From a virus (Duplodnaviria; Caudoviricetes), in IMG/VR virus record IMGVR_UViG_3300027657_000008, positions 1 to 31,081 of that record: DNA of 31,081 bases; one strand, given 5' to 3'. The position numbers and the translations under genes were made by a program. The notes under the pieces were generated by a model, which was not told the DNA's origin, made no database searches, and was given only the letters and a program-made list of their open reading frames with translations. Shown here piece after piece: positions 2,077 to 29,505 of the stretch (the stretch's first letter is position 1; the number at the start of each line of letters is the position of its first letter).

Positions 2077-2806
2077 GTACGACGCGCACGCCGCGGCGCC
2101 TGCCAGCGACGCCACTACCCACCGCGGTGTGGCTGTGGTTCCCGTGGCGGGCCCGATCTACCGCGGCGCTGCCGAGCGCATCGTGGCGCAGGTACAGGCC
2201 GCGGTGGCCGACCCGCGCATCGCCGCCGTAGTGCTCGGCCTGGACACACCGGGCGGCACCACCACAGGTCTACCCGAGGCGCACGCGGCACTGATGGCCC
2301 TCCGCGGCACCAAGCCTATCGTGGCCCAGGTCAGCCACATGGCGGCTAGCGCAGGCTACTGGCTGGCGAGCGCGGCCGATGAGATCGTAGCGAGCCCGAG
2401 CAGTGTGGTCGGGAGCATTGGTGTCTACATGATGCACGTGGACCAGAGCGCCGCCCTGGCGCAAGAGGGGCTCAAGGCTACCTACATCAGCGCCGGGCGC
2501 GACAAGGTCCTGGGTAACGGCACGGAGCCCCTGAGCGACGAGGGCCGGGCTTACTACCAGGGTATGGTCGACGAAGCCTACGCGCAGTTTACGGGTGATG
2601 TCGCCCGGGGGCGCGGGGTGGGGCTCGAGACCGTGCAGGGTGACGCCTACGGTAGCGGCCGGGTGGTCACGCCGCGGCTTGCATTGGCGCAAGGAATGAT
2701 TGACAGTATCGCCACTCTGGGCGATACTTTGGCACGCTTTATGCCATCGTCGGCGACCCAGCGGCGCGCGCGCCAATTGGCGCTACTTACCATCACCGGA
2801 GTCTGA
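2033..2806 (+). CDS. Prohead maturation protease, S49 (SppA-like) peptidase
   Basis: LDTPGG, MAASAGYWLAS (catalytic Ser), VGSIGV, SAGRDK, GMIDSI motifs; between portal and capsid. Confidence 0.92.
   Translation: MPYQALAIHPDWLAKYDAHAAAPASDATTHRGVAVVPVAGPIYRGAAERIVAQVQAAVADPRIAAVVLGLDTPGGTTTGLPEAHAALMALRGTKPIVAQVSHMAASAGYWLASAADEIVASPSSVVGSIGVYMMHVDQSAALAQEGLKATYISAGRDKVLGNGTEPLSDEGRAYYQGMVDEAYAQFTGDVARGRGVGLETVQGDAYGSGRVVTPRLALAQGMIDSIATLGDTLARFMPSSATQRRARQLALLTITGV
2730..2745 (+). promoter_or_regulatory. Candidate sigma54 (-24/-12) promoter upstream of major capsid gene
   Basis: TGGCACGCTTTATGCC vs consensus TGGCACG-N4-TTGCW; GG 2731-32 and GC 2743-44 with exact 10-nt spacing; ~65 nt before capsid ATG. 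Confidence 0.6.
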
Positions 2807-2808
2807 CA

Positions 2809-4095
2809 ATGCTGAAGGTACTACGCGAGAAGCGCGCCACGGCCATCGCCGATATGCGTGCCATTCTTGATCTGGCCGCGACCGAGAGTCGCGAGCTGAC
2901 CGAGGGTGAGACGAGCACTTTTGATGCCAAGCAAGCCGCTGTCGCCACTCTGGACGCCAGCATCGCCCGCGCCAGCACCCTCGAGACGCTGGAAGCTTCC
3001 CTGGCTGCCCCCGTCGCCTCCGTTGGCGCCCGCCAGCGCGTGACTGCCGCCCCCGGCCCAGAGGCCAAGCGCGAGTTTGAGTCCCTGAACGAGTTTATGG
3101 CCGCGGCCATCTGCAACCCGAATGACTCCCGTCTGGCCAGCCTGTACGCTGAGCAGCGTATGGACACCGGCGGTAAGGGCGGCTTCCAGGTTCCCCGCCA
3201 GTTCCTGAGCACCCTGCTGAAGGTGGACCCGCAGACCGCTATCGTCCGCCCCCGCGCCACCGTGCTGCCGGCCGGCAGTCCGCCTGATGCGGCGATCGAT
3301 ATTCCCGCCCTGGACCAGCGCACCGGCACTAACGCGAGCCCGGGCAATGTGTTCGGCGGCGTCACGTTCGCCAAGACGGACGAGGGTGGAGACAAGCCTG
3401 AGACCGATGTTGACTTCCGCATGATTACCCTGCAGCCTCAGGAGTTCTCTGGCCACATCGTCGCTACGGACCGTTTGCTCAACAACTGGTCGGCCGCTGG
3501 TGCGTTCTTCGAGAGTCAGATGCGCGCCGCGATGGTCGCCAAGGAAGACTTTGAATTCCTTCGCGGCAATGGTGTCGGTGGCCCCATCGGTGTCATTAAT
3601 GCCGGCGCGACCTACACTGTAGCGCGCGAGACCAATTCGCAGTTCACGCGGACCGATGTCAACAACATGGTCTCCCGTATCCTGATGCGCGAAGGCAACC
3701 CGGTGTGGGTGCTGAGTCGGTCGCTGATGCCTCAGCTCCTGAACATGCGCAACGAGATTGGCTCGCCGGCCGTCGGCGATGGCGCCCTGGTGTTCCAGCC
3801 TAGTGTGGTCCCGGGTATGCCTTCGATGTTGGCCGGCTTCCCGATCATCTGGAACGAGCGCAGCCCCGGCATCACTGCCAAGGGTACCGCGTTGCTGGCA
3901 GACTTCGGTAAGTACCTGGTCAAGGATGGCAGCGGCCCCTTCGTGGCTAGCTCCGAGCACGTGTACTTCCTGAAGAACAAGACGGCCATCAAGCTCTACT
4001 GGCTTGTCGATGGACAGCCTTGGCTGACCGAGCCCTTCGTGGGCGAGGACAACTATGAGGTCTCCCCGTTCGTCGCCCTTGGCGCCAACACGTAA
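2809..4095 (+). CDS. Major capsid protein, HK97 fold, with N-terminal coiled-coil scaffold (delta) domain
   Basis: Heptad-like N-terminus; GGFQVP, EGGDKPET, FLRGNGVGGP.GV, LAGFPI, LLADFGKY, SPFVAL; GGAG RBS at 2798-2801. Confidence 0.95.
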   Translation: MLKVLREKRATAIADMRAILDLAATESRELTEGETSTFDAKQAAVATLDASIARASTLETLEASLAAPVASVGARQRVTAAPGPEAKREFESLNEFMAAAICNPNDSRLASLYAEQRMDTGGKGGFQVPRQFLSTLLKVDPQTAIVRPRATVLPAGSPPDAAIDIPALDQRTGTNASPGNVFGGVTFAKTDEGGDKPETDVDFRMITLQPQEFSGHIVATDRLLNNWSAAGAFFESQMRAAMVAKEDFEFLRGNGVGGPIGVINAGATYTVARETNSQFTRTDVNNMVSRILMREGNPVWVLSRSLMPQLLNMRNEIGSPAVGDGALVFQPSVVPGMPSMLAGFPIIWNERSPGITAKGTALLADFGKYLVKDGSGPFVASSEHVYFLKNKTAIKLYWLVDGQPWLTEPFVGEDNYEVSPFVALGANT

Positions 4096-4105
4096 TAGCC
4101 GCAGT

Positions 4106-4125
4106 GGGGCCCCTGATGGGGCCCC
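4106..4125. repeat. GGGGCCCC-TGAT-GGGGCCCC perfect hairpin after capsid gene
   Basis: 8-bp all-GC stem with 4-nt loop between capsid stop and the GAGGA RBS (4126-4130) of the next gene; no U-tract. Confidence 0.7.
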
Positions 4126-4137
4126 GAGGAATCTAGA

Positions 4138-4506
4138 ATGAGTGCAAAACTGAGTGAGCTGGCCGTTGCGAGCCCCGCTGCGAGCTGGGTCAGCATGGAA
4201 AACTACCGCCAGGTGTCTGGCATCGCCGTTGTAGCGGATGCGGACACCGGCGAAACCGTGACAGTGCAGCTGCGGAAGGCAACGGATGCGAGCGGCACGA
4301 ACGCGACCAACTTCGGCACGGCCGTTGTTGTCACTGGCGCCGCGACCGACACCGATATTAGCGCGATCCAGACCGAGTGGAGCCAGGCTTTGGGTGCTCT
4401 GGCCGGCGTGCCATACACCCACGTGTCCGCAACCCTGAGCACGGGCGCGAGCCCCGAGACCGTGACGGGTGTTGTGCTCCGCAGTGAGCCGCGGTTCAGC
4501 GTATAA
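4138..4506 (+). CDS. Putative capsid decoration / virion protein
   Basis: 122 aa, beta-rich, A/T/V-rich; WVSM.NY and LRKATDASGT pattern typical of small genes following HK97 capsids; good RBS. Confidence 0.65.
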   Translation: MSAKLSELAVASPAASWVSMENYRQVSGIAVVADADTGETVTVQLRKATDASGTNATNFGTAVVVTGAATDTDISAIQTEWSQALGALAGVPYTHVSATLSTGASPETVTGVVLRSEPRFSV

Positions 4507-5275
4507 GTGTGTTCGACCCTACCTGGACCCAGGCACTAGGCGTCCGGTCCAGGTAGGGGCCACAGTCTATGGCGACCTTCCCCATTTAGTAGCGGCGGGG
4601 TTTTTAAGTCTCCTCCCCTCCCCCGCGTTACCCGCCGCTCCTTCTATCGTGTGGCCCGTGTGGCCGGTAGTCGTCTGCATCGCTACGGGGCCCAGCCTTA
4701 CCCGAGCCGATGCGCTGGCCCTGCGTCACCTACCAACTATCGCCGTCAACGATGCCTACCGCGTCGCCCCGCACGCGCAGATTCTCTACGCCGCCGATAA
4801 ATCCTGGTGGGACATGTACAACTGTTGCCCGGACTTTACAGGGCGGAAAGTGTCGCAGAATGTACAACCTGGACGCGGGTGGCCCACGGATGCAACAGTT
4901 GAGGTGCTGCGGAGCATCAAAGCGCCGGGTATGTCGCGCGACCCGGGAGTGTTGCACCGAGGGTACAACTCCGGGTATCAGGCGCTCAACTTGGCTTTAC
5001 TTTGCGAAGCGAAAATTGTAGTATTGCTGGGGTATGACTGCGGTCAACCGCTGGGGAGCCCGTCGCATTATTTCGGCGATCACCCCAACGGCCTGCAGAA
5101 ATGCTCCCCGTATGACCTGTTCCGCCGATCCTTCGCGGATGCGGCTCCGACAATCTCGGCCCGCGTTATCAACGTGAGTCGCCAGACTACGCTCGACTGT
5201 TTCGAGCGTATGAGCATCGGCAAGTGCTTGACCATTATAAAGAACTCGGGGGGCTCGTCTTACTCGGCGCAGTGA
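4484..5275 (+). CDS. Maf/DUF115-like (sialyltransferase-fold) putative glycosyltransferase with short N-terminal extra domain
   Basis: CIATGPSL, IAVNDAY, LYAAD..WW, NSGYQALNLA, VLLGYD, HYFGDHP, VINVS motifs of the DUF115/Maf/CstII-like group. Start uncertain (GTG 4484 chosen; 4469 or ~4650 possible). Confidence 0.72.
   Translation: MSRGSAYKCVRPYLDPGTRRPVQVGATVYGDLPHLVAAGFLSLLPSPALPAAPSIVWPVWPVVVCIATGPSLTRADALALRHLPTIAVNDAYRVAPHAQILYAADKSWWDMYNCCPDFTGRKVSQNVQPGRGWPTDATVEVLRSIKAPGMSRDPGVLHRGYNSGYQALNLALLCEAKIVVLLGYDCGQPLGSPSHYFGDHPNGLQKCSPYDLFRRSFADAAPTISARVINVSRQTTLDCFERMSIGKCLTIIKNSGGSSYSAQ
4517..4558. repeat. Perfect 13-bp inverted repeat
   Basis: CCCTACCTGGACC (4517-4529) / GGTCCAGGTAGGG (4546-4558), 16-nt loop, 10 nt after stop of decoration gene. 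Confidence 0.8.
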
Positions 5276-7435: not shown

Positions 7436-7441
7436 CCGCGG

Positions 7442-7473: not shown

Positions 7474-7671
7474 ACTCTTGACGAATTCATTCCCGCCGTT
7501 CGTGCCACCATACCAGACGTGGCAATCCAATTGACCAAGGAGCAGTTGCTGGACGATGACCGGCCGATTGCTATCTTCGCCCTGGGTAGTCGCACGGTCT
7601 CTATCGGTGCTCGAGTGCACCTGGACGCTGAGTTAGTCGCCTGGCTGGTACGCGAATTGCTTCCCTTGTAG
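7471..7671 (+). CDS. Hypothetical protein (66 aa)
   Basis: ATG-started ORF with protein-like composition in operon direction. Confidence 0.55.
   Translation: MTLDEFIPAVRATIPDVAIQLTKEQLLDDDRPIAIFALGSRTVSIGARVHLDAELVAWLVRELLPL
7646..7661 (+). promoter_or_regulatory. Candidate sigma54 promoter upstream of glycosyltransferase/methyltransferase cluster
   Basis: TGGTACGCGAATTGCT; GG 7647-48, GC 7659-60; perfect TTGCT -12 box; 14/16 identical to the motif at 26401-26416. Confidence 0.65.
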
Positions 7672-7723
7672 ACGTGGAGAGTCTAGGAGTACCCTGGGCC
7701 CACAAGAAGAAGGGGAGACTGAG

Positions 7724-7870
7724 ATGATCGCTTGCGAACGTCAGACTAACGACCTGTGGTGCGTCATTACGCACTCCGCCATGCATACCGACCTGACGCG
7801 CTGGCAGGCCGCGGGCATCCTGCGCGCCCTGGGCCTCCTGCCTTGCCGTATCGCAGAGGTGCTGCGGTGA
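7724..7870 (+). CDS. Small hypothetical protein (48 aa, MIACERQTNDLWCVITH...), below ORF-track cutoff
   Basis: GGGGAG RBS upstream; stop overlaps next GTG start (GTGA). Confidence 0.6.
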   Translation: MIACERQTNDLWCVITHSAMHTDLTRWQAAGILRALGLLPCRIAEVLR

Positions 7871-8595
7871 GAGTCCTCTACGACCCGCGCGCTACGGGCC
7901 CGAGTTGTCTCGCCGTAGCGCGCGCGCTAGGGCGCCCTGAGGCTTACGTGGGGCAGCCGATCGGCCCCGAGGGCGCGGCGTTCTTCGGTACCCCGACATT
8001 GCTCCCGCTGGCTTTGGCTATGCAGGCCGCGGGTACGCCATTTGTCTACGTGGATCATGGCTACATCCGCAAGTCTGGTGTCTACCGCATGACGCGTAAT
8101 GCGCTGCAGGTGACGCAGTGGGGCAGAGCAACGCGCCGCTATCCAGGCATCATGGCACCCTGGCGCCCGTGGGGTGAGCACGTGCTGGTATGCCCCCCAG
8201 AGACCGGCCACGCTGCAATGCTAGGCGTGGACTCGGCAGCGTGGCTGCAACTGGTGCTGGGGGCCCTGGCGGTCCATACAAGCCGCCCCGTGAGGGTGCG
8301 GCCCCGCAATTGCCCCGAGCCCCTGGCACAGGACTTGCAAAACTGCTGGTGTCTGGTGACGTGGACCAGCAATGCGGCAGTTGATGCCATTCTCGCGGGG
8401 ATACCGGCGATATGCACGGGGCCCTGCGCCGGGGGCATCATCAGCAGCCGGCGGATACAGGATATTGAGAGCCCCCACATGTCGCGCGTGCGGCAAGACT
8501 GGGCGGACTGGCTAGTTAGCAACCAATGGAGTTTAAAGGAATGCAATTTAACGAGCCTACGGGGTGGTGGCTGCCCGATGGGGAGACCCACCTAA
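7867..8595 (+). CDS. Putative glycosyltransferase (GT-B-like, capsule-synthesis/KpsS-like C-terminus)
   Basis: FVYVDHGY, PWR..GEHVLVCPP, HTSRPVRVRPR, L..DL.NCWCLVTWTSNAAVDAILAGIP; start GTG 7867 by coupling. Confidence 0.65.
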   Translation: MRVLYDPRATGPSCLAVARALGRPEAYVGQPIGPEGAAFFGTPTLLPLALAMQAAGTPFVYVDHGYIRKSGVYRMTRNALQVTQWGRATRRYPGIMAPWRPWGEHVLVCPPETGHAAMLGVDSAAWLQLVLGALAVHTSRPVRVRPRNCPEPLAQDLQNCWCLVTWTSNAAVDAILAGIPAICTGPCAGGIISSRRIQDIESPHMSRVRQDWADWLVSNQWSLKECNLTSLRGGGCPMGRPT

Positions 8596-9272
8596 TTGAA
8601 TGGATGACGGTTAGTAAGCAGAAGTGCGACGGCGGGCGGCTTGGCTACCAGATGCACAAGCTTAACCGCTGCATGGCCGAGGCGCCGGCGCATCGCAGGC
8701 GTGTGGCCGTAGACGTGGGCGCCCATGTGGGCCTGTGGTCCTGGCCGTTGGCGCACCGGTTCGGTACAGTGCACGCGTTTGAGCCCATGCCCGAGCATCA
8801 GGATTGTTGGTACGCCAACATGGGGCAGCATTCAGCGGCCATAGAAATGCCGCAGCTGGCGGTTGGGGCGGAAACGGACGTACCCGCGCTTAACGCCTTG
8901 TTGCATGGGGTCGCGTTAGGCGAGAACATTCGCCCTGTGCGAATCGCGACCCGCACACCGGGGAGTAGCGGTGATACTGGGGTCGACGTTAGGGGGCTCG
9001 AAGTGGAGATGCGCACTTTAGATAGCTTCGAGCTTGATAAAGTGGACTTTATTAAGGTCGACACGGAAGGCTATGAGCCGTTTGTGATCGATGGCGCACG
9101 CGAGACTATCGCCCGGTGTCGGCCCGCGTGCATAGTGGTCGAGCAGAAACCCGAGACGGGAGGGGCGCAGCGCTACGGGACGACGGTCACTGCAGCGGTG
9201 GAATTGCTCGAGACGATGGGGTACCGCAAGGCTGCGGTGTTGCAAGGCGACTACATAATGGTGCCGCGCTGA
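8541..9272 (+). CDS. FkbM-family SAM-dependent methyltransferase
   Basis: VDVGAHVGLWS, VHAFEP, VALG, MRTLDSF, VDFIKVDTEGYEPFVIDGA, VVEQ; GGAG RBS favours ATG 8541 (8526 alternative). Confidence 0.92.
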   Translation: MQFNEPTGWWLPDGETHLIEWMTVSKQKCDGGRLGYQMHKLNRCMAEAPAHRRRVAVDVGAHVGLWSWPLAHRFGTVHAFEPMPEHQDCWYANMGQHSAAIEMPQLAVGAETDVPALNALLHGVALGENIRPVRIATRTPGSSGDTGVDVRGLEVEMRTLDSFELDKVDFIKVDTEGYEPFVIDGARETIARCRPACIVVEQKPETGGAQRYGTTVTAAVELLETMGYRKAAVLQGDYIMVPR

Positions 9273-9991: not shown

Positions 9992-10793
9992 CCTGATGGC
10001 GGCCCCGGCGTGGGCGGACGGGCCCTGGGTCATGGACGCCGGCACCGCGACCCGTACGGTCACAGCCACACATGGGTGGATGCCGGGTGCCGCGCCGGCG
10101 GGCTTCCCGGGCTCCGCGCCCCTGCAGGCCTCGCCGGATATGGGGCTCAATGCAGAGACCGGTACGCCGGCGCTTAGCTTTGCGTGGACGCCGCCTTCGC
10201 CCGGCACCTATTACGTGTGGCTGGTCGGCTGGGCCAAGGGCGGGGCGGCGGACACAGCAGTCGTGGGGCTCAACGGCGCCAGGCTGTCTCGGGTTGCCTT
10301 TACGCCACTCCGGCAGTGGACGCGGTCTAAGCCGGTGCCCGTCACGGTCGGCGCGACCCCGGTAAGCATTGATGCGCATATGCGCGAGGACGGACTGTGG
10401 CTGGCGCAGTTGGTTATCACGCGCGAGCCGGTGTGGGAGGCGCCAGACCCCGACGGCGACACCGGGGAGCACTCTTTCCCGCTTGTGTTCACCTGGCGCC
10501 AACCTGACGTGGCCGATTTTCCCTCCATGACTTGGCGGCTACGGTACAAACTGGGCGGCCAGGACTACGTGCACATCCAGGGTATTGAGCAGCAGCGCTA
10601 TGAGCGGTCAGTATTGGCCCTTCCTGATACAGAGCTGACAGCCTGGGTCAGAGCGTGTGAGCCTAAAGGTTGTTCCGCATGGTCGCTACCTGTGACCGTG
10701 ACGCTAGAACTCCCGGTGGACGAGGTCGATCCGGACGCTGGCACGGGTGATGCAGAGATACCAGTGGAGCTTAGTATTCAACTGGTGAACTGA
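9966..10793 (+). CDS. Secreted protein: signal peptide + carbohydrate-binding-like beta-sandwich + FN3-like domain
   Basis: MRWITLLISLMAAPAWA signal peptide; GTYYVWLVG...DTAVVGLNG...MREDGL pattern; C-terminal FTW..P, WRLRY, VRAC...GCSAWS.PV. Confidence 0.7.
   Translation: MRWITLLISLMAAPAWADGPWVMDAGTATRTVTATHGWMPGAAPAGFPGSAPLQASPDMGLNAETGTPALSFAWTPPSPGTYYVWLVGWAKGGAADTAVVGLNGARLSRVAFTPLRQWTRSKPVPVTVGATPVSIDAHMREDGLWLAQLVITREPVWEAPDPDGDTGEHSFPLVFTWRQPDVADFPSMTWRLRYKLGGQDYVHIQGIEQQRYERSVLALPDTELTAWVRACEPKGCSAWSLPVTVTLELPVDEVDPDAGTGDAEIPVELSIQLVN
10739..10754 (+). promoter_or_regulatory. Candidate sigma54 promoter upstream of membrane-protein cluster
   Basis: TGGCACGGGTGATGCA; GG 10740-41, GC 10752-53; ~40 nt before ATG 10795. 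Confidence 0.55.
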
Positions 10794-10794
10794 A

Positions 10795-14249: not shown

Positions 14250-14305
14250 GCCGCTGCAAGAAGTGTGCCAAGGTACGCGAGGTGCTGATGCCGTGGCTGA
14301 AGTAG
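14246..14305 (+). CDS. Putative 19-aa CxxC micropeptide (MSRCKKCAKVREVLMPWLK)
   Basis: GGAGGA RBS at 14233-38, 7 nt before GTG; GTGA coupling to head-closure stop. Confidence 0.5.
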   Translation: MSRCKKCAKVREVLMPWLK

Positions 14306-14721: not shown

Positions 14722-15125
14722 ACTACGCGGACTTCCGCAGCGTGGTGCTCGCGGCGGCACCGGTGGCGGCGATCGTGGCGGCGCGTGTGTTCCCGCTGAT
14801 CGTGCCACAAGAGGTGTGGTCGAGCCCGACCCGCAAGCCCTGCATTGTATTTACAACGCGAAGTGTACAAAGGCAGGTCCGCACGTGCGGCACGGATGAG
14901 TTGCTGCAGGAACGGGTGGACCTTGACTGCTACGCACGGGACAGCGACACTTGTCAGTTGCTCGCCGCTGCTGTAAGATTGGCACTCATTGATTTTCGCG
15001 GCACGGTGGGTGCTACCCGCTTCGGGCCGTTCCATTTAGAGTCGGAGACAGACCTGGACGACGATGAGCCCGGCCTGTTTCGTCGTGTCCTAACCTTTAG
15101 CATCTGGAGTCGCCCGGCGCCATGA
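14718..15125 (+). CDS. Tail terminator protein, DUF3168 family
   Basis: V.AIV.ARVFP...PQ, PCIVF, RV.LDCYA, LAAAVR.AL. Confidence 0.85.
   Translation: MNYADFRSVVLAAAPVAAIVAARVFPLIVPQEVWSSPTRKPCIVFTTRSVQRQVRTCGTDELLQERVDLDCYARDSDTCQLLAAAVRLALIDFRGTVGATRFGPFHLESETDLDDDEPGLFRRVLTFSIWSRPAP
14999..15014 (+). promoter_or_regulatory. Candidate sigma54 promoter upstream of major tail gene
   Basis: CGGCACGGTGGGTGCT; GG 15000-01, GC 15012-13; preceded by an AT-rich IHF-like stretch. Confidence 0.45.
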
Positions 15126-15828: not shown

Positions 15829-15842
15829 CCCCGGAGCAACTG

Positions 15843-16136: not shown

Positions 16137-18142
16137 CTGATCTCGCTAAGTTAGTCGTCAGGTTCGAAGCCGAGACCGCCCAGCTTACCAAACAGCTGCA
16201 GAGCACCCAAGGCAAGCTCGAGGCGTTCGGTAAGAAGTCTACGGCCTCGGCCACGGCCGTAGGCACAGCCTTCGGTGTCATGGCGGCCCAGGCCGCTACG
16301 GCCATCCTCTCAATGGCCAAGGCGGCCATTGATGGCGCCGACGCTACCAGCAAGTTCGCTCAGTCCGCCGGCGTATCCACCGAGGCTTTCTCCCGCCTTA
16401 GCTTCGCGGCGGAGCTTAGCGGCTCCAGCGCAGACCAGCTGCGCGACGCATTCAACAAGCTGAACAAGTCCGCCACGGATACCAGCCGCGGCATTGGTAG
16501 CTCACAGGCCGCCTTTGCTGCGCTTGGCGTGAGTGTGGTTGATGCCAGCGGCAAGATTAAATCATCTGACGCTCTGTTGCTCGACGTAGCGGAAAGTTTC
16601 TCCACCTTCCAGGATGGCGCCGCTAAGGGTGCGGCCGCCCAGGCTATCTTCGGCGAGTCCGGGGCGCGCTTGCTCCCGCTGCTTAATCAGGGTCGCGCCG
16701 GGCTTGAGGCAATGGGCGCCGAGGCCGATCGCCTCGGGCTCACGCTCACCGATGAGGCAGGCAAGGCGGCCGAGGCGTTCAATGACAACCTGACGCGCCT
16801 GCGCAAGGTGACTGACGGTGTCGTGTTGCGCATTGCGCAAGGCTTGCTACCGACCCTGGAAGCCATGTCGGCGCGGTTAGTCACTGGCAGTGCTGATGCG
16901 TCGGGCTTTGCGGGTAGCGTCAAGATCATTACGGGCACCATCAAGGGCCTGATTACCGCAGGAACGCTCGTTACAAGCGTCCTGGACGCTGTGGGGCGCA
17001 CCCTGGGCGGCTTGGCGGCCGCGGCTGTGGCTGCCATAGGCGGCGAGTTTCGGCAAGCGCTCAGCATCCTGGGTGAGATCGACACGGACTTTAACGCGAT
17101 CGCCGAGCAAGCCGGCCGCGACGTGGCGGCAATCTGGGCCAACAGCGACATTCCGGAAGCTGCAGCGGCGGCCGGCGCAGGCGCTACTGAAGGCTTCAAG
17201 CGCGAGCTGAAGTTCGCTCCCGCGGCCGGAGCTGAGACCGCCAAGGCCGCCAAGGCCGTGCGCGACTCCATCACGCCTATGATTCAGGCGCTGCAGGAGC
17301 AGGCGGCCACGCTGGGTATGACTAGTACCCAGGTAGCGCTCTACCGGCTGGAGATGGAAGGCGCCAACACCGCGCAGCTGGCCGTAGCGGCTAGCGCTGT
17401 GGCTGTGATCGATGCTCACGAGCGCCAGGCCGAGGCCGCCGAGGCCGCCGCGAGCGCCGAGGCTGAGCGCATTGGGAACCTGGAGTCGCTGCAGGAGCGC
17501 CACATTGGTCTCATCACCGGTGTGGACGATGCGACCCGCCAGCTACTGCAGACGCAAGAAGAGCTGGAGACGCTGCTGGGCGCGGGGCGCATCAGCGCCG
17601 ACGAGTACGCGGCGGCTATGGAGCGGCTTGGCGAGACCAGTCGCGAGGGACTGTTCGACGTGGCGGAGTTTGGCAAGGAAGCGGCACGGAGCTTGCAGAG
17701 TAGTTTCTCTGACTTCCTGTTCGACCCGTTCAGCCAGGGGCTCGACGGCATGCTCAAAGGCTTCGGGCAGGTCCTGCAGCGCATGATCGCCGAGGCCGTA
17801 GCTGCAGACCTGCTCGGACGCATCACCGGGGGCGGCGGTGGGGGCGGCGGCGGGATCGGTGCGGCGCTGACTGGCGTAGGGAAGTTCTTCGGGTTCCTGA
17901 ATAACGGGGGCACGGTCCCACACGGGCAGTTCGCTATCGCCGGGGAGAACGGGCCCGAGCTAGTATTTGGGGGCTCGCAGGTAGTTAGCACGCGCGAGAC
18001 AGCGCAGATGATGCAGGGTGGCGGTACGACTATCAACGTGTCGATCGCACCACAGAACAACACTACGGACATGCGGCGCGCCGCGGGCCAGGGCGCCCGT
18101 GAGGGACTGGCTGCACTAGCGGGGGCTCAACGTTATGCCTAA
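16133..18142 (+). CDS. Tape measure protein (669 aa)
   Basis: LAKLVVRFEAET start, Ala-rich helical body, AIFGESGARLLPLLNQG, C-terminal AGENGPEL. Confidence 0.93.
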   Translation: MTDLAKLVVRFEAETAQLTKQLQSTQGKLEAFGKKSTASATAVGTAFGVMAAQAATAILSMAKAAIDGADATSKFAQSAGVSTEAFSRLSFAAELSGSSADQLRDAFNKLNKSATDTSRGIGSSQAAFAALGVSVVDASGKIKSSDALLLDVAESFSTFQDGAAKGAAAQAIFGESGARLLPLLNQGRAGLEAMGAEADRLGLTLTDEAGKAAEAFNDNLTRLRKVTDGVVLRIAQGLLPTLEAMSARLVTGSADASGFAGSVKIITGTIKGLITAGTLVTSVLDAVGRTLGGLAAAAVAAIGGEFRQALSILGEIDTDFNAIAEQAGRDVAAIWANSDIPEAAAAAGAGATEGFKRELKFAPAAGAETAKAAKAVRDSITPMIQALQEQAATLGMTSTQVALYRLEMEGANTAQLAVAASAVAVIDAHERQAEAAEAAASAEAERIGNLESLQERHIGLITGVDDATRQLLQTQEELETLLGAGRISADEYAAAMERLGETSREGLFDVAEFGKEAARSLQSSFSDFLFDPFSQGLDGMLKGFGQVLQRMIAEAVAADLLGRITGGGGGGGGGIGAALTGVGKFFGFLNNGGTVPHGQFAIAGENGPELVFGGSQVVSTRETAQMMQGGGTTINVSIAPQNNTTDMRRAAGQGAREGLAALAGAQRYA

Positions 18143-23500: not shown

Positions 23501-23715
23501 TGGGCGAGACCAGCGAAGCCTATGAGGTGGACGTGTTCTCGGGGTCGGTGATAGTGCGCACTCTGAGTGCATCTACACCTACGGTCGCGTATACTAGTGC
23601 GCAGCAAGTAGCGGACTTTGGGTCAGACCAGGGTACGCTGTCTGTGCGCGTCTACCAACTGAGTAGCACTGTCGGCCGCGGGCGGCCCCTCATCGAGAGC
23701 ATCACGCGTGGCTAA
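20506..23715 (+). CDS. Central tail / host specificity protein (GTA megatron-like, Phage-tail_3)
   Basis: GPRLSDL.VQT..YG..IPR.YGT, FAVGLCQGPI, PAY.GLAYIVFE, ALEPL, LEPADVI, LLRGRFGSE, WTRRTR, PLGE.SE.YEV. Confidence 0.92.
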   Translation: MSSAGQALGGVVGAVAGFFVGGPQGALYGAQLGLAVGGALDPPKGPNIQGPRLSDLTVQTATYGAVIPRAYGTIATHGNVFWLQGDALTEVAAKSTQGGKGGGPSSSVTSFSYFATFAVGLCQGPIAGIRRIWIGPDLFYDAGSGDLETILASNAAAEGFTLYLGTESQAPDPLIQADRGAADTPAYTGLAYIVFEQLALADYGNTLQAAQVKVEVIQVATLEGLTLLAEETQEYTPYTVTGGVGAGSGVPYNGYAGFARPDHIRWYLPDWDNSTPPNPRQFYVYDVRPGNITFDGVRAVNRVAAQESPPVLTDSTELYYGSINELFSPPPTQLSNFGALQGRVRGTWAAVTSTRSGVHAAYLAPIGTPAAFFQIAGIATAGAVEVTEAGDVYYFDASGARRFDSSGALVDTVAFAFDIPTTSVEQPRAYLSDDGNIYLNTRFATASQLYRISQDLTSIALVGNVAHVFNASGDDNYDITVEDGVFARFCVNSNAGATDIKTAWFSLAGVAGDLVPLADIVEAECLQSALLTAGDLYTSELTQLVRGYKVGTVAALRAALEPLQGAYPFDIVQSGYQIAFRVRGRAPVATVTADELDARGGSDQPGQRLTILREMDTQLPRTVSLGYLDVEREYDTSEQSTDRISTESVNRRSLEFALVLDADEAAQRAEVLLWLYWLERYDLRFTLPDTYLDLEPADVITIQHPDATYEARITAITYTADQRLECHAKLNDTPLYTSTALGDRGDSTETVIALEGPSEYVLVDGPTLLDSLDAPGVLGAMHGFSAAWPGGTIHQTRDSGTTWPVLGAFAGPVPMGNAFNPIGAPDAFWVVDEENVLRATIIQGALESVTLLQMLNGANHFAYGAAGRWEIIAAQTCTQGADGSWTLQGLLRGRFGSEWAAGLHGIGDTLVLLTDADVQFLGLPLVTRGVLTQTRGITAGATIDTDDDRDFTYNAENLLPLSPVYLNGSRHPTTRDWTLTWTRRTRIGGEWMDFVDAPLGETSEAYEVDVFSGSVIVRTLSASTPTVAYTSAQQVADFGSDQGTLSVRVYQLSSTVGRGRPLIESITRG

Positions 23716-25429
23716 CAGCACCACAAACCTAGACCAGCTAGTCCAGTCCCAGGCGTCCAAGGAAGTAACGGCTAACGCGCTCTGGGACGCCATGAGCCAG
23801 GCCGCTACCTACGGGCGCAGGGCCAGCACTACATCTGGGCTCACGTGGGGCTTCTATGGCGGTAATGTAGTTGTCAGCAGCGGCGCCTACGTAGCGGTGG
23901 CCAACGGTACTTTGACGCTGACTGCCAGTGCGACTAACTACATTGTCGCGCTGAAAGCCGACGGGGTGGTTAGTTTCGCGACCGTCAGCACCAACTGGGA
24001 CAATGTTACCGACTATTGGCGCTTGTACAGGGTAGTTACTGGCACGGCCACAATTACCAGTTACACCGATGATCGCCAAAGTAGCTTTCTCGCGGTCTCG
24101 GGGAATGGTAATGGTGCAGCGGCGGTTGTGATTGTGCCTGACGGCACCGAGCGCACCATCACTGAGTCCCAGACCTACCACGCGCAGGCCAGCGCCGAGG
24201 ACAACGACTGGCACGCGCTGGCGTGGAGCCAGGAGCTCGGGCGCTGTGTGGCGATCGCGCGCTCGGGCACCAACCGAGTCATGTATTCAGATGACGGCAT
24301 CACGTGGGTGCCGGCTACGGCCAGCAACAACCGCGACTGGCGCGACGTGGTGTGGGCGGACACCCTGGGACGGTTCGTGGCCGTGGCGTTTGACGGTGCC
24401 GCTGCGGGGCAGGTTATGACCAGTCCCGACGGGGTGACGTGGACCGACCGCACGTCCTCGTTGGCAACCCAGTGGGGAGGGCTAGCGTGGGCGCGGGCGC
24501 TCGGGCGGCTAGTGGCAGTTGCGGAGTCTGGCGCTAATCGTGTCATGACCAGCGAGGATGGCATCACGTGGACCAGCCGCACGGCCGCCGCTGCCAACAC
24601 TTGGCGTGACGTGGACTGGAGCGCTGAGCTGGCGCTGTTCTGTGCTGTGAGCAGCACCGGTACCGCCAATCGCGTCATGACCAGTCCAGACGGTATCACG
24701 TGGACCAGCCGCAGCACGTCGGGTAATGACAATTTCTGGTCTGGGGTGGTATGGGGTGCCTACGCTGGGGTGTTCGTAGCCGTGGCACAGAGCGGCACCA
24801 ACCGTGTACTTACGAGTCCTGACGGCATCACGTGGACCGGGCGCACCGCTGCGGCAGCGCAGCAATGGTACAAGGTCACGTGGGCGCCGGAGATCGGTTT
24901 GTTCCACGCGGTCCACCTGGACTCGGTGGCCACGAGTATGACCAGCCGCGATGGCATTACCTGGGCTAGTCGTACCGCAGCCACAGCCAACGCCAAGCGG
25001 CGTAGCGTGTGGTGTGCCGGGCTCGGCATGTTCATCGTGACGGCAAGCGCAGGCGTAGGTAACCGTGTCGAAACCAGCGCTGGGTACGTAGGCGTGTACA
25101 CCCCGACGCTATTTGCCGTGGCCAATGTGGCCGCGAGCACGGCATTTCCTATGCGATGGGAGCGGCGCGGCAAGAATGTGATGGTCTACGGCCAGGTTAA
25201 CATCCAGGCGACTGCAGGTGCTACGAACACTCAGCTAGGCGTAAGCCTGCCATTGAGCGCTACCTTCGCCGCCGAGGACATGCTATCTGGGTCTGCTACT
25301 GCGGGGTTCGCTACGGTCGCAGGTAGCTACGTGGCGGACACAAGCAACGCACGGGCGGAGTTCCGCTATCTCAGCGAGTCCACCATCAACCGCGCTATGC
25401 GCGGCTCCTTCAACTACAGGTTGACCTAA
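23708..25429 (+). CDS. Tail fibre / receptor-binding protein with Asp-box beta-propeller
   Basis: N-terminal SQASKEVT.N anchor (DUF2793-like); six S.DG[IV]TW repeats plus one partial; C-terminal YTPTL...RRGKNV.VYG..LP fibre-tip-like domain. Confidence 0.82.
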   Translation: MANSTTNLDQLVQSQASKEVTANALWDAMSQAATYGRRASTTSGLTWGFYGGNVVVSSGAYVAVANGTLTLTASATNYIVALKADGVVSFATVSTNWDNVTDYWRLYRVVTGTATITSYTDDRQSSFLAVSGNGNGAAAVVIVPDGTERTITESQTYHAQASAEDNDWHALAWSQELGRCVAIARSGTNRVMYSDDGITWVPATASNNRDWRDVVWADTLGRFVAVAFDGAAAGQVMTSPDGVTWTDRTSSLATQWGGLAWARALGRLVAVAESGANRVMTSEDGITWTSRTAAAANTWRDVDWSAELALFCAVSSTGTANRVMTSPDGITWTSRSTSGNDNFWSGVVWGAYAGVFVAVAQSGTNRVLTSPDGITWTGRTAAAAQQWYKVTWAPEIGLFHAVHLDSVATSMTSRDGITWASRTAATANAKRRSVWCAGLGMFIVTASAGVGNRVETSAGYVGVYTPTLFAVANVAASTAFPMRWERRGKNVMVYGQVNIQATAGATNTQLGVSLPLSATFAAEDMLSGSATAGFATVAGSYVADTSNARAEFRYLSESTINRAMRGSFNYRLT

Positions 25430-25431
25430 CA

Positions 25432-25659
25432 ATGGCTTGGGAAGTTGACTATGACTATGTGGCGCGCACGGTCACTGTGCGACGCCAGGGGGCGCCCGGC
25501 GCAGTCACCTACGGGGAGGCCGAGCGTGAGGTGGCAATCCTGGAAGTACCCGACGCGCGGCGAGTGCTCGCCGCCGCCGGGATTACCGTTCCTACCGTGG
25601 AGCGCGAGCGGGAGCTACGCGAGACCCGGTGGCCGGCCGATGACACAAGGACGCGCTGA
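25432..25659 (+). CDS. Hypothetical protein (75 aa), last gene of late operon
   Basis: ATG 2 nt after the fibre stop; no motif recognised. Confidence 0.55.
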   Translation: MAWEVDYDYVARTVTVRRQGAPGAVTYGEAEREVAILEVPDARRVLAAAGITVPTVERERELRETRWPADDTRTR

Positions 25660-25704
25660 GTTCTATCCATCGCGCTACGTAGTCCTGTGCGTCCTGATTC
25701 CAAG

Positions 25705-25730
25705 CCTGCGCAGCAGCCACACTGCGCAGG
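25705..25730. terminator. Hairpin between convergent transcription units
   Basis: CCTGCGCAG-N8-CTGCGCAGG 9-bp stem; no U-tract on either side, so terminator role is uncertain. Confidence 0.4.
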
Positions 25731-25772
25731 GCCCGCGGGGTCGGCCGGCTTAGCGCCAGGCCAAACACCCCG

Positions 25773-25958
25773 TCACTCAGTGTGGCGGTCAAGTTCACCT
25801 GCAATCTCCTTGTACGCTAGCACTATGTTCTCGTAGCGCTCAAACAGTTTCTGGAAGCGCGCGAATGTCGCGGCATTGGGGTTGGCTACCCATTCGCGCC
25901 GTGCGTCGGCCAGGTGTGTGGCTGTGATCAGCGCGCGATCCTGGATACGGATAGTCAT
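25773..25958 (-). CDS. Hypothetical protein (61 aa, MTIRIQDRAL...)
   Basis: GGGGG RBS and ATGA coupling support start 25958 rather than track start 26183. Confidence 0.65.
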   Translation of the reverse strand: MTIRIQDRALITATHLADARREWVANPNAATFARFQKLFERYENIVLAYKEIAGELDRHTE

Positions 25959-26062
25959 AGTGTCGCCCCCTGCAGTGCCAGAGCGATCCCGTGACCGGTC
26001 AGCCACGCGCAGACTACTAGTGCGGTCAGAGTTAGTGTTACGTTGCGGATAAAGCTGCTCAT
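25955..26062 (-). CDS. Small membrane peptide (35 aa, MSSFIRNVTLTLTALVVCAWLTGHGIALALQGATL), below ORF-track cutoff
   Basis: Perfect AAGGAGG RBS (26070-76, minus strand); stop overlaps next ATG. Confidence 0.72.
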   Translation of the reverse strand: MSSFIRNVTLTLTALVVCAWLTGHGIALALQGATL

Positions 26063-26080
26063 TTTGGTGCCTCCTTTTTA

Positions 26081-26389
26081 TTACCAGACCCATTCGCCGG
26101 TAGTGACGTAGGTCCAATCGCTGTCTACGTAAACTGCATCCAGAAACCGTGCCACATCGGGCAGCAGCGCTACTGCGTCGCAAACCTGGGCATCGGCCTC
26201 AATTACGAACGGCTCCACGCCGGCTTCGAGCGCGGCCGTCAGACTGTGGTGGCCGTCCAGCAGCACTCGGTAGGTCTGTCCGTCAACCGTAAACTCTGGA
26301 CTAACCGTGATTGTGAAGTCTCGGGCAGCAAACTTACGGCTCACTATGGCCGAGTCCAGGTAGCGCTGACTTGTGATGATGTTGTGCAT
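26081..26389 (-). CDS. Small ParB/Srx-like domain protein (102 aa)
   Basis: ITSQRYLD, YRVLLDGHHSLTAA..AGVEP (DGHH-type motif); no RBS, predicted leaderless. Confidence 0.72.
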   Translation of the reverse strand: MHNIITSQRYLDSAIVSRKFAARDFTITVSPEFTVDGQTYRVLLDGHHSLTAALEAGVEPFVIEADAQVCDAVALLPDVARFLDAVYVDSDWTYVTTGEWVW

Positions 26390-26400
26390 GTCATATGTGT

Positions 26401-26416
26401 AGCAGTTCGCGTGCCA
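26401..26416 (-). promoter_or_regulatory. Candidate sigma54 promoter, leftward
   Basis: Minus strand TGGCACGCGAACTGCT; ATG 26389 lies 13 nt beyond the -12 C. Confidence 0.72.
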
Positions 26417-26426
26417 CCCCACAGGC

Positions 26427-26442
26427 TGGCATGGATTAAGCA
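26427..26442 (+). promoter_or_regulatory. Candidate sigma54 promoter, rightward
   Basis: TGGCATGGATTAAGCA; GG 26428-29, GC 26440-41; upstream of GGGAG RBS and ATG 26477. Confidence 0.62.
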
Positions 26443-26476
26443 TAGTAGAGTGCACCAACAATGGGAGACCAAGATT

Positions 26477-26668
26477 ATGGATAACGAGGACCTGCTTCTG
26501 TTCGCTGAACTCCTGGGACGCGAGTTTACCCAGTCCTACGATTCGGACCGTCCCGGCCGGGCCCTATACATGCGCCGGGCCTTCTATCGGGTGCTGGAGC
26601 CCTTGGAGTGCAGTGGGTTGCGCCACGCGATGCGGGAAGCCTACACAAGCCAGGGTGGGGTGCTGTGA
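26477..26668 (+). CDS. Hypothetical protein (63 aa), paralogue 1
   Basis: GGGAG RBS; similar to the next ORF. Confidence 0.72.
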   Translation: MDNEDLLLFAELLGREFTQSYDSDRPGRALYMRRAFYRVLEPLECSGLRHAMREAYTSQGGVL

Positions 26669-26862
26669 TGCCCTTCGCCGATCTGATGTTGCTGGTGGAG
26701 CTACTGGGCGCCGAGTACGAGCGTGCGGCACTCAACGGACGCCAGGAGCACGCCTACCACGTGCACCAAACCTACCGGCGCGTGTGTGCGCTTACCGTTG
26801 AGACCTGCGAACTCGATGAGTTGCGTGATGCTTACATCTACGCGGGGGGCACCGTATGGTAG
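26668..26862 (+). CDS. Hypothetical protein (64 aa), paralogue 2
   Basis: TGATG coupling; similar to the previous ORF. Confidence 0.72.
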   Translation: MPFADLMLLVELLGAEYERAALNGRQEHAYHVHQTYRRVCALTVETCELDELRDAYIYAGGTVW

Positions 26863-28724
26863 CCTTCCTGGACTTCGAGACGTACTCAGAGTGCGACATT
26901 ACCAAGTGCGGGGCGCCGGTCTACGCGGCGCACCCGAGTACCGAGGTGCTGTGCGCTTGCTATGACGTGGGCACGGGGCCCCGCATCTGGCTGCCAGGCG
27001 ACCCACCGCCGGCGGAGTTGCTGGAGCATGTGGCTGCCGGCGGGCGCATCGCCGCGCGCAATGCCGCCTTTGAGCAGCTGATATGGCCGCGCACAGGGTG
27101 GCCGCCGGTGCCGCTCGAGCAGTGGGAGTGTACTGCTAGCCGCGCGCGCGGCTGGGGGCTCCCAGGGTCTCTCAAGGATTCAGGCGCAGCGCTTGGCGAG
27201 GTGCAGAAGAAGGACACCCTGGGCACGCGGCTCATCACTATGTACTGCTGCCCACAGAAGGATGGCAGTCGGCGGCACACGGGCAGCGACATGCGCCTGT
27301 ATAGCTACTGCTTGCAAGACATAGTGTCCGATGCGGACCAGATGCGGCACATACCGCCCCTCAGCGACCATGAGCGCCAGGTGTGGCTGGTGGACCAGCG
27401 CATCAACCAGCGCGGCGTTGCGATCGACATGGAGTCGGTCCGCGCCTGCGCAGCACTGGTGGACCGGGAGTTGGCGGCGGGTGCCGTCGAGGTGCAGCGG
27501 ATCACTGGGGGCATCAACCACACTGAGCTGGCGCAGCTGCGAGACTGGGCCCTCGCCCGGGGCGCGCGGCTCGCCGACATGACCGCCGCTACCATTGCCG
27601 CCGAGCTAACGCGTGGTGACCTTGAGCCCGAGGTGCGCGCGGCGCTGCAGTGGCGCTCGGACCTGAGCAGCGCCAGCGTCAAGAAAATTTACGCCCTGCG
27701 CGATCGCGTGGGGGCCGATGGTAGGCTCCGCGACGTGCTGGCTTACTGCGGGGCCGAGAGCACCGGGCGATGGGCGGGCCGTGGCCCACAGACCCAGAAT
27801 CTCCCTCGCCCGCCCGAGGGTTGGGACGCGGATGCGGCGCTCGAGGCGATCAGGCGCGGGGAGGCGACGGGCTTAGATGTGGTCAAGAATAGTCTCAGAG
27901 GCCTGTTCGTGGGCCATGAGCTAGTGTCGAGCGATTATACAGCCATCGAGGCCGTAGTTCTCGCGGCGCTGGCCGGCGAACAATGGCGACTCGATGTGTT
28001 CGCGGGGCACTGCAAAATCTATGAGGCGAGCGCGGCGGCCATCACCGGGCGCACCCTGCAGTACTACCTGGACTACAAGGAGCAGAACGGAAAAAACCAT
28101 ATAGATCGGGCACTTGGAAAAGTTGCCGAGTTGAGCTCAGGATTCGGCGGTGGGGTGGGTGCGTGGCTGCGCTTTGGGGCCGGCGCGACCATGAGCGAGG
28201 ATGAGATAGCCGCCGCGTTGCAGGCGTGGCGCAAGGCAAGCCCGCGCGTGGTGCAGCTTTGGTACGCTCTGGACCGGGCGGCATGCGCTGCCGTGCGGGA
28301 CCGGGGGCGCGAGTACCAGGCTGGCAGCGCGCCAGTCAGCTACCAGGTGCTGGGAGACACCCTGTACTGCCGGCTGCCCAGCGGGCGGACTCTCTGTTAC
28401 CACCAGCCAGCACTGGCGCCGGGTAAGTTTGGGCGCGATCAGCTCACGTACGTCAGTTATGGACGCCGGGAGTCAGCCTGGTATGGATTGCTCACCGAGA
28501 ACGTGGTGCAGGCTGTGGCTAGGGACCGGTTCGCGCAGTGTCTCCTGGACCTCGAGGCGTGCGGCTACCCGGTGGTCATGCACACCCACGACGAGCCCGT
28601 GTGCGAGGGGCAGGGCCTGGATGTGGCCGTGATGGAGCGCATCATGACGCGCCCCCTGGACTGGTGTGATGGCTGGCCTATCCGCGCCGATGGCGGTTGG
28701 CACGGATATCGCTATAGGAAATAG
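26856..28724 (+). CDS. DNA polymerase family A with 3'-5' exonuclease (SPO2/APSE-like)
   Basis: Exo motifs LDFETYS, NAAFE, YCLQD; TGRWAG; motif A DYTAIE; motif B R..GKVAELSSGFGGG; ENVVQA.ARD; motif C HTHDE. Confidence 0.95.
   Translation: MVAFLDFETYSECDITKCGAPVYAAHPSTEVLCACYDVGTGPRIWLPGDPPPAELLEHVAAGGRIAARNAAFEQLIWPRTGWPPVPLEQWECTASRARGWGLPGSLKDSGAALGEVQKKDTLGTRLITMYCCPQKDGSRRHTGSDMRLYSYCLQDIVSDADQMRHIPPLSDHERQVWLVDQRINQRGVAIDMESVRACAALVDRELAAGAVEVQRITGGINHTELAQLRDWALARGARLADMTAATIAAELTRGDLEPEVRAALQWRSDLSSASVKKIYALRDRVGADGRLRDVLAYCGAESTGRWAGRGPQTQNLPRPPEGWDADAALEAIRRGEATGLDVVKNSLRGLFVGHELVSSDYTAIEAVVLAALAGEQWRLDVFAGHCKIYEASAAAITGRTLQYYLDYKEQNGKNHIDRALGKVAELSSGFGGGVGAWLRFGAGATMSEDEIAAALQAWRKASPRVVQLWYALDRAACAAVRDRGREYQAGSAPVSYQVLGDTLYCRLPSGRTLCYHQPALAPGKFGRDQLTYVSYGRRESAWYGLLTENVVQAVARDRFAQCLLDLEACGYPVVMHTHDEPVCEGQGLDVAVMERIMTRPLDWCDGWPIRADGGWHGYRYRK
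28698..28713 (+). promoter_or_regulatory. Candidate sigma54 promoter
   Basis: TGGCACGGATATCGCT; GG 28699-700, GC 28711-12; upstream of RBS and ATG 28747. Confidence 0.62.
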
Positions 28725-28746
28725 CAGAGACAACCGGGAGAGCGAG

Positions 28747-28974
28747 ATGGCCACAGACCGATACGCAGACCTGCTAAAGCAAGGCTTCATGAAGCCGAGG
28801 AAAGCAAAAGCCCCGATTGAAATTGTTTCCTGTATCGGATGCCAGAATTGGCACGCCAAAGGGAAGCACACGGAGAAAGACGCCGCGGTCCGCCGGTCTA
28901 ACGTGAAGGCGGAGGCCCGGGAGCGGGCCCGCATCATGGAAGCGCGCCGGAGACTTGGCATAGTGTCTGCATAA
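28747..28974 (+). CDS. Small basic protein with CxxC-H-H putative zinc finger (75 aa)
   Basis: CIGCQNWHAKGKH; GGGAG RBS. Confidence 0.65.
   Translation: MATDRYADLLKQGFMKPRKAKAPIEIVSCIGCQNWHAKGKHTEKDAAVRRSNVKAEARERARIMEARRRLGIVSA
28956..28971 (+). promoter_or_regulatory. Candidate sigma54 promoter (leaderless transcript)
   Basis: TGGCATAGTGTCTGCA; ATG 28983 is 13 nt after the -12 C (28970). Confidence 0.68.
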
Positions 28975-28982
28975 GAAATAGC

Positions 28983-29264
28983 ATGAACATCAAACTAACC
29001 AAAGCGCAACTGGCAGTGGTCGAAGTCAACGAATGGACCGACATGGACCTGCATGGAGACTTCGGTGGTGTGGAATACATGGGCTTCATGTGCGCCTACG
29101 ACGCCAAGCGCGGGGCGATCCTGACCAGCGTCGGCAAGGAGCACCTGAGCAACGCCGCGAACTTCCTGTTTGACTTTGGTAATTGCGAGATGGAGCCCGC
29201 TAACGAGCGCCGAGCCATCATGAACCTGGCAAGCAAAGTGCTTAGGGCAGCATATGACAAATGA
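28983..29264 (+). CDS. Hypothetical protein (93 aa)
   Basis: ATG ORF with strong C/G third-position bias; no RBS. Confidence 0.7.
   Translation: MNIKLTKAQLAVVEVNEWTDMDLHGDFGGVEYMGFMCAYDAKRGAILTSVGKEHLSNAANFLFDFGNCEMEPANERRAIMNLASKVLRAAYDK
29227..29242 (+). promoter_or_regulatory. Candidate sigma54 promoter (leaderless transcript)
   Basis: TGGCAAGCAAAGTGCT; ATG 29254 is 13 nt after the -12 C (29241). Confidence 0.6.
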
Positions 29265-29505
29265 ACAACTACAGGTGAAAGCCTGGAACAAGATGAACAT
29301 CAAGCGCGGCAAGTATGTGCCTTGCCGTGAGACCTGGAAGCACGAACCGGAACCCACCTCGCAGGTGAAAGCCCAGCGCTACGCAGATTGGCTGATAGAC
29401 ACCGGGCGCACGGTGGCTTGGGTCTACCCAGCCACACCTGCGGTGGCACGGATGGTGCTAGAGAATAGCGGACTGGAGGTGAGAGAATATGATCAGGGAA
29501 TATAA
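29254..29505 (+). CDS. Hypothetical protein (83 aa)
   Basis: Overlapping operon-like arrangement. Confidence 0.68.
   Translation: MTNEQLQVKAWNKMNIKRGKYVPCRETWKHEPEPTSQVKAQRYADWLIDTGRTVAWVYPATPAVARMVLENSGLEVREYDQGI
29444..29459 (+). promoter_or_regulatory. Candidate sigma54 promoter
   Basis: TGGCACGGATGGTGCT; GG 29445-46, GC 29457-58; upstream of GGAGG RBS and ATG 29489. Confidence 0.65.

Follow-up and report, generated by a model that had tools for sequence, protein, structure and literature searches.

Sigma-54-type boxes as probable host RpoN promoters of early and replication genes in a tailed-phage contig

Introduction

Sigma-54 RNA polymerase stays silent until an ATPase opens it, so that for a phage relying on it either the signalling state of the host decides when infection starts or the phage carries an activator or bypass factor. 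In publications phage use of sigma-54 is called rare, a view resting on YuA, a siphophage reported to be strictly dependent on host sigma-54 (PMC5053324, partial text). One sigma-54-like start of YuA was confirmed by ONT-cappable-seq (excerpt of PMC10914365), and in its GenBank record (AM749441) three fragments of the structural region are annotated as -24/-12 promoters. Here we describe a set of sigma-54-type boxes in IMGVR_UViG_3300027657_000008, a linear contig of 31,081 bp and 64% GC from an uncultured soil phage; the window, by which we mean the whole stretch analysed, is the entire record. We consider it probable (about 0.72) that these boxes are host sigma-54 (RpoN) promoters that start the early and replication genes. 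Because the boxes head such genes, the phage likely begins infection through the activator-dependent RNA polymerase of its host.

Sites were scored out of 8, with the GG and GC fixed and eight further sigma-54 consensus positions counted, and a strong site was one scoring at least 7. The consensus used agrees with the text of PMC12316311 and, by eye, with the validated promoters in its S2 Table. On this scale the window resembles YuA in its 64% GC and its sigma-54-type promoters but differs sharply in their density, since YuA holds 1 strong site in 58.7 kb (0.17 per 10 kb) and the window 2.9 per 10 kb. The best forward site in the marked YuA fragments (L164-L165) scores 5/8, and one fragment has no site scoring 4 or more, which makes the published precedent the weaker of the two in sequence terms. 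YuA also has sigma-70 and phage-specific early promoters, whereas this phage has at least 12 strong boxes in 38 kb on early and replication genes, a divergent pair and predicted leaderless cassettes. The set is thus denser and cleaner than that of YuA and is placed on early genes. Our searches of the open-licence literature and bioRxiv turned up neither a phage-wide sigma-54 set nor leaderless phage genes with sigma-54 promoters.

Bacterial promoters offer a second comparison. The E. coli argT, norV, zraP and glnA promoters carry TGGCAC and TGC boxes at fixed spacing, and the phage sites deviate from consensus in the way those promoters do (PMC12316311, partial text). Unlike bacterial boxes, the phage ones come with no enhancer or integration host factor (IHF) site that we could find, overlap the final codons of the gene upstream and in several cases are too close to the ATG for a leader. 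Activation without a fixed enhancer has been described for DctD250, an engineered AAA-only activator that fires sigma-54 promoters, intragenic ones included, without an enhancer (excerpt of PMC3844500). Htm (Gp204), an AAA+ protein of an E. coli phage, has no DNA-binding domain and has been suggested to work on sigma-54 holoenzyme; it also lacks GAFTGA, its sigma-54 action is a hypothesis, and it concerns host genes (bioRxiv 10.64898/2026.10.06.757011).

Enrichment of sigma-54-type sites

An earlier note, made from the sequence alone, had listed ten motifs with exact GG-N10-GC spacing ahead of early and late genes. All ten were found where it placed them, the minus-strand one running from 26416 to 26400; the two window sites that score 8 of 8, 8324 (plus strand) and 14270 (minus strand, antisense), had been missed. 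Its motif had TTGC in the second half, which most sites replace by NTGC, with T at -15 in only 4 of 14 early or middle sites. The validated E. coli promoters argT, norV, fdhF and zraP likewise lack T at -15 (PMC12316311 S2 Table, seen in part). Its caution that GG-N10-GC alone is common proved justified: a loose pattern allowing 2 mismatches gave 59 sites against 44.6 +/- 6.9, a number reached by 5 of 100 shuffles. As the loose pattern hardly exceeds chance, we used the score defined above.

With that score, and with the late region defined as 1-25700 and the early region as the remainder, a consensus scan against codon-shuffled controls, of the kind that the note had proposed, gave 9 strong window sites where about 1 was expected (a stricter first scoring gave 8 against 0.34 in 1000 synonymous shuffles). 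Late strong sites numbered 5 against 0.69 (synonymous shuffles) or 0.66 (within-gene shuffles), and early ones 4 against 0.23 or 0.46; none of the 600 shuffles of each kind reached the observed number in either region. Column-permuted motifs run on the real sequence gave 0.46 late and 0.11 early sites, the observed counts being reached by 1 of 1500 and 0 of 1500, and shifting the spacer by -3 to +5 left just 0-1 strong sites per region, which indicates strict spacing. The sites are asymmetric as in sigma-54 promoters: TGGCA is present in 14/14, GC in 14/14 (fixed by the search) and W at the following two positions in 14/14 and 13/14. The positional bias towards gene starts on which the note had leaned was also recovered, sites scoring at least 6 and lying 20-130 nt ahead of a start numbering 5 against 0.6-0.9 in the late region and 6 against 1.0-1.4 in the early region; this distance range and the gene starts were chosen after the note's list was known. 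Sigma-70-like sites in the early region were at chance level (2 against 1.4).

The enrichment extends beyond the window. A relative 96% identical to it (L162) adds 7.25 kb, in which strong sites reach 4.1 per 10 kb and the 3 additional strong boxes all lie 64-143 nt ahead of a start. Among 80 loci of 5-22 kb with related polymerases, none exceeds 3 such sites. The box set is a trait of this clade and not of the polymerase family.

Early-region boxes and their conservation

The early region holds two boxes placed back to back and further boxes at and beyond the end of the DNA polymerase gene. Its features are as follows.

26400..26416, minus strand: sigma-54-type box, leftward member of the pair, 7/8 by motif scoring; ATG at +27
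26417..26426, no strand: 10-bp spacer between the paired boxes; length kept and sequence free in relatives
26427..26443, plus strand: sigma-54-type box, rightward member, 6/8; 10 bp from the leftward box; ATG at +50
26081..26389, minus strand: gene of 102 amino acids (aa), phrog_4807, predicted leaderless; ParB-like DGHH motif by eye
26477..26862, plus strand: tandem paralogues of 63 and 64 aa, 29% identical; clade-only
26856..28724, plus strand: family A DNA polymerase; C-terminal end GWHG
28698..28714, plus strand: sigma-54-type box, 7/8, within the last polymerase codons; ATG at +49; AATAGC at 28720
28956..28972, plus strand: sigma-54-type box, 7/8; ATG of the 93-aa gene at +27; AATAGC at 28977
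28983..29264, plus strand: 93-aa gene, predicted leaderless; exact protein in the public collection; 6 cluster members of 93-94 aa
29227..29243, plus strand: sigma-54-type box, 6/8; ATG of the 83-aa gene at +27
29254..29505, plus strand: 83-aa gene, predicted leaderless; exact protein in the collection; 5 cluster members of 83 aa
29444..29460, plus strand: sigma-54-type box, 7/8; ATG of the 119-aa gene at +45; AATAGC at 29464

The rightward box of the pair heads the 63/64-aa genes and the polymerase. We compared the pair with L160 and L161, two relatives that are 82-85% identical to the window across the early region. The leftward box keeps 16 of 17 bases and the rightward box 17 of 17, whereas the 10-bp spacer keeps only 1 of 10 and 5 of 10 bases in L160 and L161; the pair footprint (33/34) therefore differs from the spacer with Fisher p values of 1e-7 and 0.001, respectively. 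In runs X3 and X6 similarity to the window starts precisely where the rightward box does, at 26427, and in X6 the left cassette is swapped for 662 other letters before similarity returns at that base. Cassette swapping thus breaks at the box edge.

Other genes take the place of the 102-aa gene in relatives. In L160/L161 an unrelated 86-aa gene stands at +27 of the leftward box; further on comes another leftward box, with the start of a 94-aa gene at its +27. L160 has in addition an extra box ahead of two genes inserted before the polymerase, and L163 carries an inserted 61-aa gene with a duplicated 28956-type promoter, whose boxes and purine-rich AGGAAATA stretch are retained and whose spacer differs. 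New cassettes in L160 and L163 therefore bring their own box, and promoter-plus-small-gene cassettes are swapped and duplicated among relatives. Conservation under divergence was covered for the pair (26400-26443) and 28956, and in part for 7646 and 8324; at the pair and at 28956 the boxes are kept while their neighbours change. Boxes 28698, 29227 and 29444 are identical in L162 and L163.

Box 28698 overlaps the end of the polymerase gene, where the protein ends in GWHG in place of the GWRG found in 104 of 120 listed proteins; it is this replacement that yields the TGGCAC of the box. The AATAGC that the earlier note had seen behind three early boxes is present at 28720-28725, 28977-28982 and 29464-29469, or 22, 21 and 20 nt past the first base of the box. 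It is the shared purine-rich stretch just ahead of the predicted start, which at box 28698 also holds the polymerase stop codon and is likely the region that melts.

The tandem paralogues have few relatives. The 63-aa protein has no hit in the Atlas and 8 homologues, every one from this clade; L161 retains only the second paralogue. The structure predicted for the 63-aa protein is a confident three-helix bundle (model from 5 sequences) with no Foldseek match at E 0.001, the best Z being 7.3, among generic bundles. L160 retains a 13-bp direct repeat at 26556/26574, whose gene L161 lacks; at 82-85% identity an invariant run of 32 nt near 26746 is no more than chance would give.

Back-to-back sigma-54-like boxes exactly 10 bp apart also occur in 89 unrelated viral loci (L166-L254), mostly of 40-48% GC, and one of these contigs holds 8 dispersed copies. 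There they might serve for the docking of two RpoN molecules, as a decoy or as an origin element.

Genes starting 27 nt past the box

At three window sites, 26416 (minus strand), 28956 and 29227, an ATG lies exactly 27 nt past the first base of the box and 13 nt past the C of the GC, where 0.05-0.18 such cases were expected. Two of these starts match proteins called in a public collection; the third (26389) was chosen in this analysis, and its exact protein is absent from that collection. With the relatives included, five genes start at exactly +27, and they have no detectable similarity to one another (local scores 18-31). None of the five has GGAG or GAGG, their best Shine-Dalgarno matches being 0-4 nt, whereas of five genes at +41 to +55 of early boxes four have GGAG, one of them as GGAGGTG. 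The 119-aa gene has a strong Shine-Dalgarno match.

With the GC at -13/-12, transcription would start at the base before the +27 ATG or at its A. The +27 genes are thus predicted to give leaderless mRNA. This reckoning uses the -24/-12 placement of the sigma-54 elements (PMC4842269, partial text). The +27 spacing, which the earlier note did not remark on, adds support to its proposal of early RpoN promoters. The 44-bp pair and the 27-nt promoter-to-ATG cassettes are small parts testable without the phage, and the cassettes would allow one to ask whether sigma-54 can yield translated leaderless mRNA.

Similar arrangements were found elsewhere. In the unrelated phage loci L122 and L082 we counted 13 and 7 boxes of this type, and in many cases an ATG follows at +26 to +28 (the seed pattern itself had ATG at +27). 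The two mutually related viral contigs (L122:442-6035 and L082:3600-5200) hold near-identical boxes in tandem cassettes, each before a small open reading frame (ORF) with its ATG at +26 to +28 or +31/32; by tblastn they are unrelated to the window. Across viral contigs the leaderless-type pattern matched 78 stretches, and in 56 of these there was no second leaderless site. We also tried to derive the host from the same pattern in genomes. About 250 stretches matched, against about 280 estimated by chance, and their taxonomy was scattered, so no host was called from it.

Late-region boxes

The late region contains the following boxes.

2730..2746, plus strand: weak box, 6/8, near-palindromic and scoring on both strands; 79 nt ahead of the capsid gene
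7646..7662, plus strand: box, 7/8; 78 nt ahead of a 48-aa ORF (7724-7870) that is followed by glycosyltransferase-like genes
8324..8340, plus strand: box, 8/8; 202 nt ahead of an FkbM methyltransferase gene
10739..10755, plus strand: box, 7/8; 56 nt ahead of ORF 10795
14254..14270, minus strand: box, 8/8, antisense to the late operon; between head-closure and neck genes, with no ATG at +27
14999..15015, plus strand: weak box, 6/8; 123 nt ahead of the major tail protein gene
17682..17698, plus strand: box, 7/8, inside the tape-measure gene; 453 nt from the next start

Box 10739 survives in 0-0.3% of synonymous shuffles, 14999 in 1-7% and 2730 in 6%. Late sites scoring at least 6 number 16 with about 6 expected by chance, and 2730 and 14999 belong to this score class. 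The box at 7646 is present as the earlier note had it, but the nearest start is that of the unlisted 48-aa ORF and not that of the glycosyltransferase cluster behind it. In run X6 the alignment from 7654 on covers the -12 half of this box, and the preceding unaligned letters end in TGGCATCG, beginning TGGCAT; this implies two amino-acid changes with a box-like -24 half retained. At 8324, changes in X4 and X6 fall at 8322, 8323 and 8340 and none in 8324-8339 among the 40 of 85 rows listed. Within the 222 nt before terS of another relative, L255, no box scores 6 or more, which leaves the head of the late operon without one.

The proposal of sigma-54 promoters ahead of both early and late genes consequently holds strongly for the early and replication genes, on enrichment, spacing, asymmetry, conservation and the +27 ATG, and for the late genes only as a set. 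The late-region boxes probably comprise internal booster promoters together with some chance matches, and box 14270 could give rise to an antisense RNA.

Search for an activator and an enhancer

In agreement with the earlier note no activator was found in the window, where GAFTGA, Walker A and PF00158 gave no match, and the 11 ORFs and six frames of L162 hold no GAFTGA or PF00158 either. L162 continues the window with the rest of DUF2800, SSB, methylase, helicase, DUF6378 and primase genes and ends within primase; L255, which begins 222 nt before terS, contributes 1.7 kb with terS and the start of terL. The size of the gap between primase and terS depends on the yardstick, being large by the CheckV completeness of the window (44%) and small by the 42-43-kb genomes of the phages with the closest capsid.

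On the enhancer side, the DNA upstream of 15 sites was compared, at low power: shared 6- and 7-mers, gapped palindromes and the IHF consensus did not exceed random expectation. A by-eye look for downstream enhancers found none. The DNA upstream of 26427 and upstream of the promoter of the 93-aa gene is exchanged in relatives. Taken together, the exchanged upstream DNA and the lack of a shared word, palindrome or IHF site make activation without a fixed enhancer the simplest reading.

Proposed mechanism and alternative explanations

If the boxes are RpoN promoters, RpoN holoenzyme would bind each of them, the back-to-back pair would drive the left and right arms, and the further boxes would head small-gene cassettes. 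Transcription of the +27 genes would begin at the A of the ATG or one base earlier, and genes at +41 to +55 would receive a short leader with a Shine-Dalgarno match. Less firmly, an AAA+ activator may open the promoters without a fixed phage enhancer, as the upstream DNA of two of them is exchanged in relatives.

Several observations weigh against this reading. Synonymous shuffles keep box 28698 in 10-19% of cases, 29227 in up to 11% and 29444 in up to 16%, so these boxes are partly forced by the protein sequence, and L162/L163 (93-96% identical to the window) are too close to test their conservation. TT at -15/-14 is absent from all six early boxes of the window, and sites without it are weaker and lean more on an enhancer-bound activator. 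No sigma-54 activator, and no protein of the DctD250 kind, was found in the ~40 kb made up of the window and its relatives (L255 ORFs by eye), a span that excludes the stretch from the end of primase to terS; the null result for shared upstream elements counts on the same side. Boxes 14270, 17682 and 8324 point backward or lie far from starts. In the 89 unrelated loci most back-to-back boxes come without a linked ATG, many as 3-4-copy tandem arrays with a 46-47 bp period, which implies that such boxes need not be gene promoters.

The activator is most likely that of the host, at about even odds. It is possible, though clearly less probable, that the promoters are driven by a stripped-down, AAA-only phage activator encoded between primase and terS and itself expressed from a sigma-70 promoter. 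That gap lies outside the sequence covered, the CheckV estimate leaves room for it, and boxes ahead of replication, capsid and tail genes would fit a cascade. Yet the window and L162 show no activator signature, the boxes head swappable small genes of immediate-early look, and ~40 kb is already accounted for against the 42-43 kb of the closest-capsid phages. We regard it as unlikely that neither an AAA+ activator nor an enhancer is involved and that a small non-AAA protein, either injected or clade-only such as the 63/64-aa pair, opens the promoters; if true, sigma-54 would here escape its need for an activator by a natural route, the first such case. A similarly low probability attaches to the boxes binding RpoN holoenzyme mainly as blocks or decoys, in closed complexes that keep genes silent or titrate RpoN. 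The backward and gene-internal boxes (14270, 17682), the arrays without ATG link in unrelated phages and the failure to find activator or enhancer would suit such a role, which is at odds with the exact +27 ATG before five unrelated genes, with the arrival of a box with each inserted cassette and with the lack of a sigma-70 promoter excess to be blocked.

Two further explanations concern the motif itself. The late sites might be chance products of the common peptide L-A-x-x-L (CTG GCA ... TTG C), only the early cluster being real. Boxes 2730, 7646 and 8324 do lie in that reading frame, the number of late sites scoring at least 6 includes an appreciable chance share, terS of L255 has no box ahead of it, and relatives were compared at only one (7646) of the four late sites in the earlier note. 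Shuffles that preserve the peptide, however, give 0.7 strong late sites against the 5 observed, and 7646 remains box-like despite amino-acid changes, so that we find this explanation doubtful. That a dimeric phage repressor or activator uses the motif as a palindromic operator (TGGCAC-N5-GTGCCA) is very improbable: although 2730 is a near-palindrome and the divergent pair recalls a lambda-like switch, mirror positions beyond the GCA/TGC core are unmatched (2, 5, 3 and 1 of 22), every early box points into a gene, and no helix-turn-helix or integrase family was found among the ORFs scanned. Host RpoN promoters on the early and replication genes are the reading that we favour.

The phage and its relatives

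The window encodes an HK97-type head, a long tail, and glycosyltransferase-like and methyltransferase genes. The leftward arm is short and made of small genes, and the rightward arm comprises the family A DNA polymerase, small genes and DUF2800. Relatives at 85-97% identity came from four soil and sediment metagenome studies; no RNA data set was listed as carrying 24000-31081. Outside the window's own cluster the best polymerase relative is 45% identical; searches of viral contigs with the polymerase, capsid, 63/64-aa pair or primase found no close relatives, nor did a capsid search of genomes. The putative endolysin has named relatives at 60-66% from Achromobacter, Bordetella, Stutzerimonas and Caldimonas, which may give a hint, and only a hint, of a beta- or gammaproteobacterial host.

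Within the structural operon, 4469-5275 and 7867-9991 hold glycosyltransferase-like genes (phrog_4603, GT9, DUF6716-like) and the FkbM methyltransferase gene, which may serve virion modification. Two proteins, encoded at 11651-13252 and 23708-25429, have in common repeated SxDGxTW motifs, which we take to be BNR/Asp-box-like; one precedes the head-tail adaptor and the other closes the tail module. Where the late and leftward arms converge, a GC-rich hairpin at 25704-25729, seen by eye and unreported by the terminator scan, is a candidate two-way terminator. In L162 a 290-aa ORF (L162:4404-5276) without a Pfam match stands alone between SSB and methylase and shows, by eye, Hint-like ends and a LAGLIDADG-like motif.

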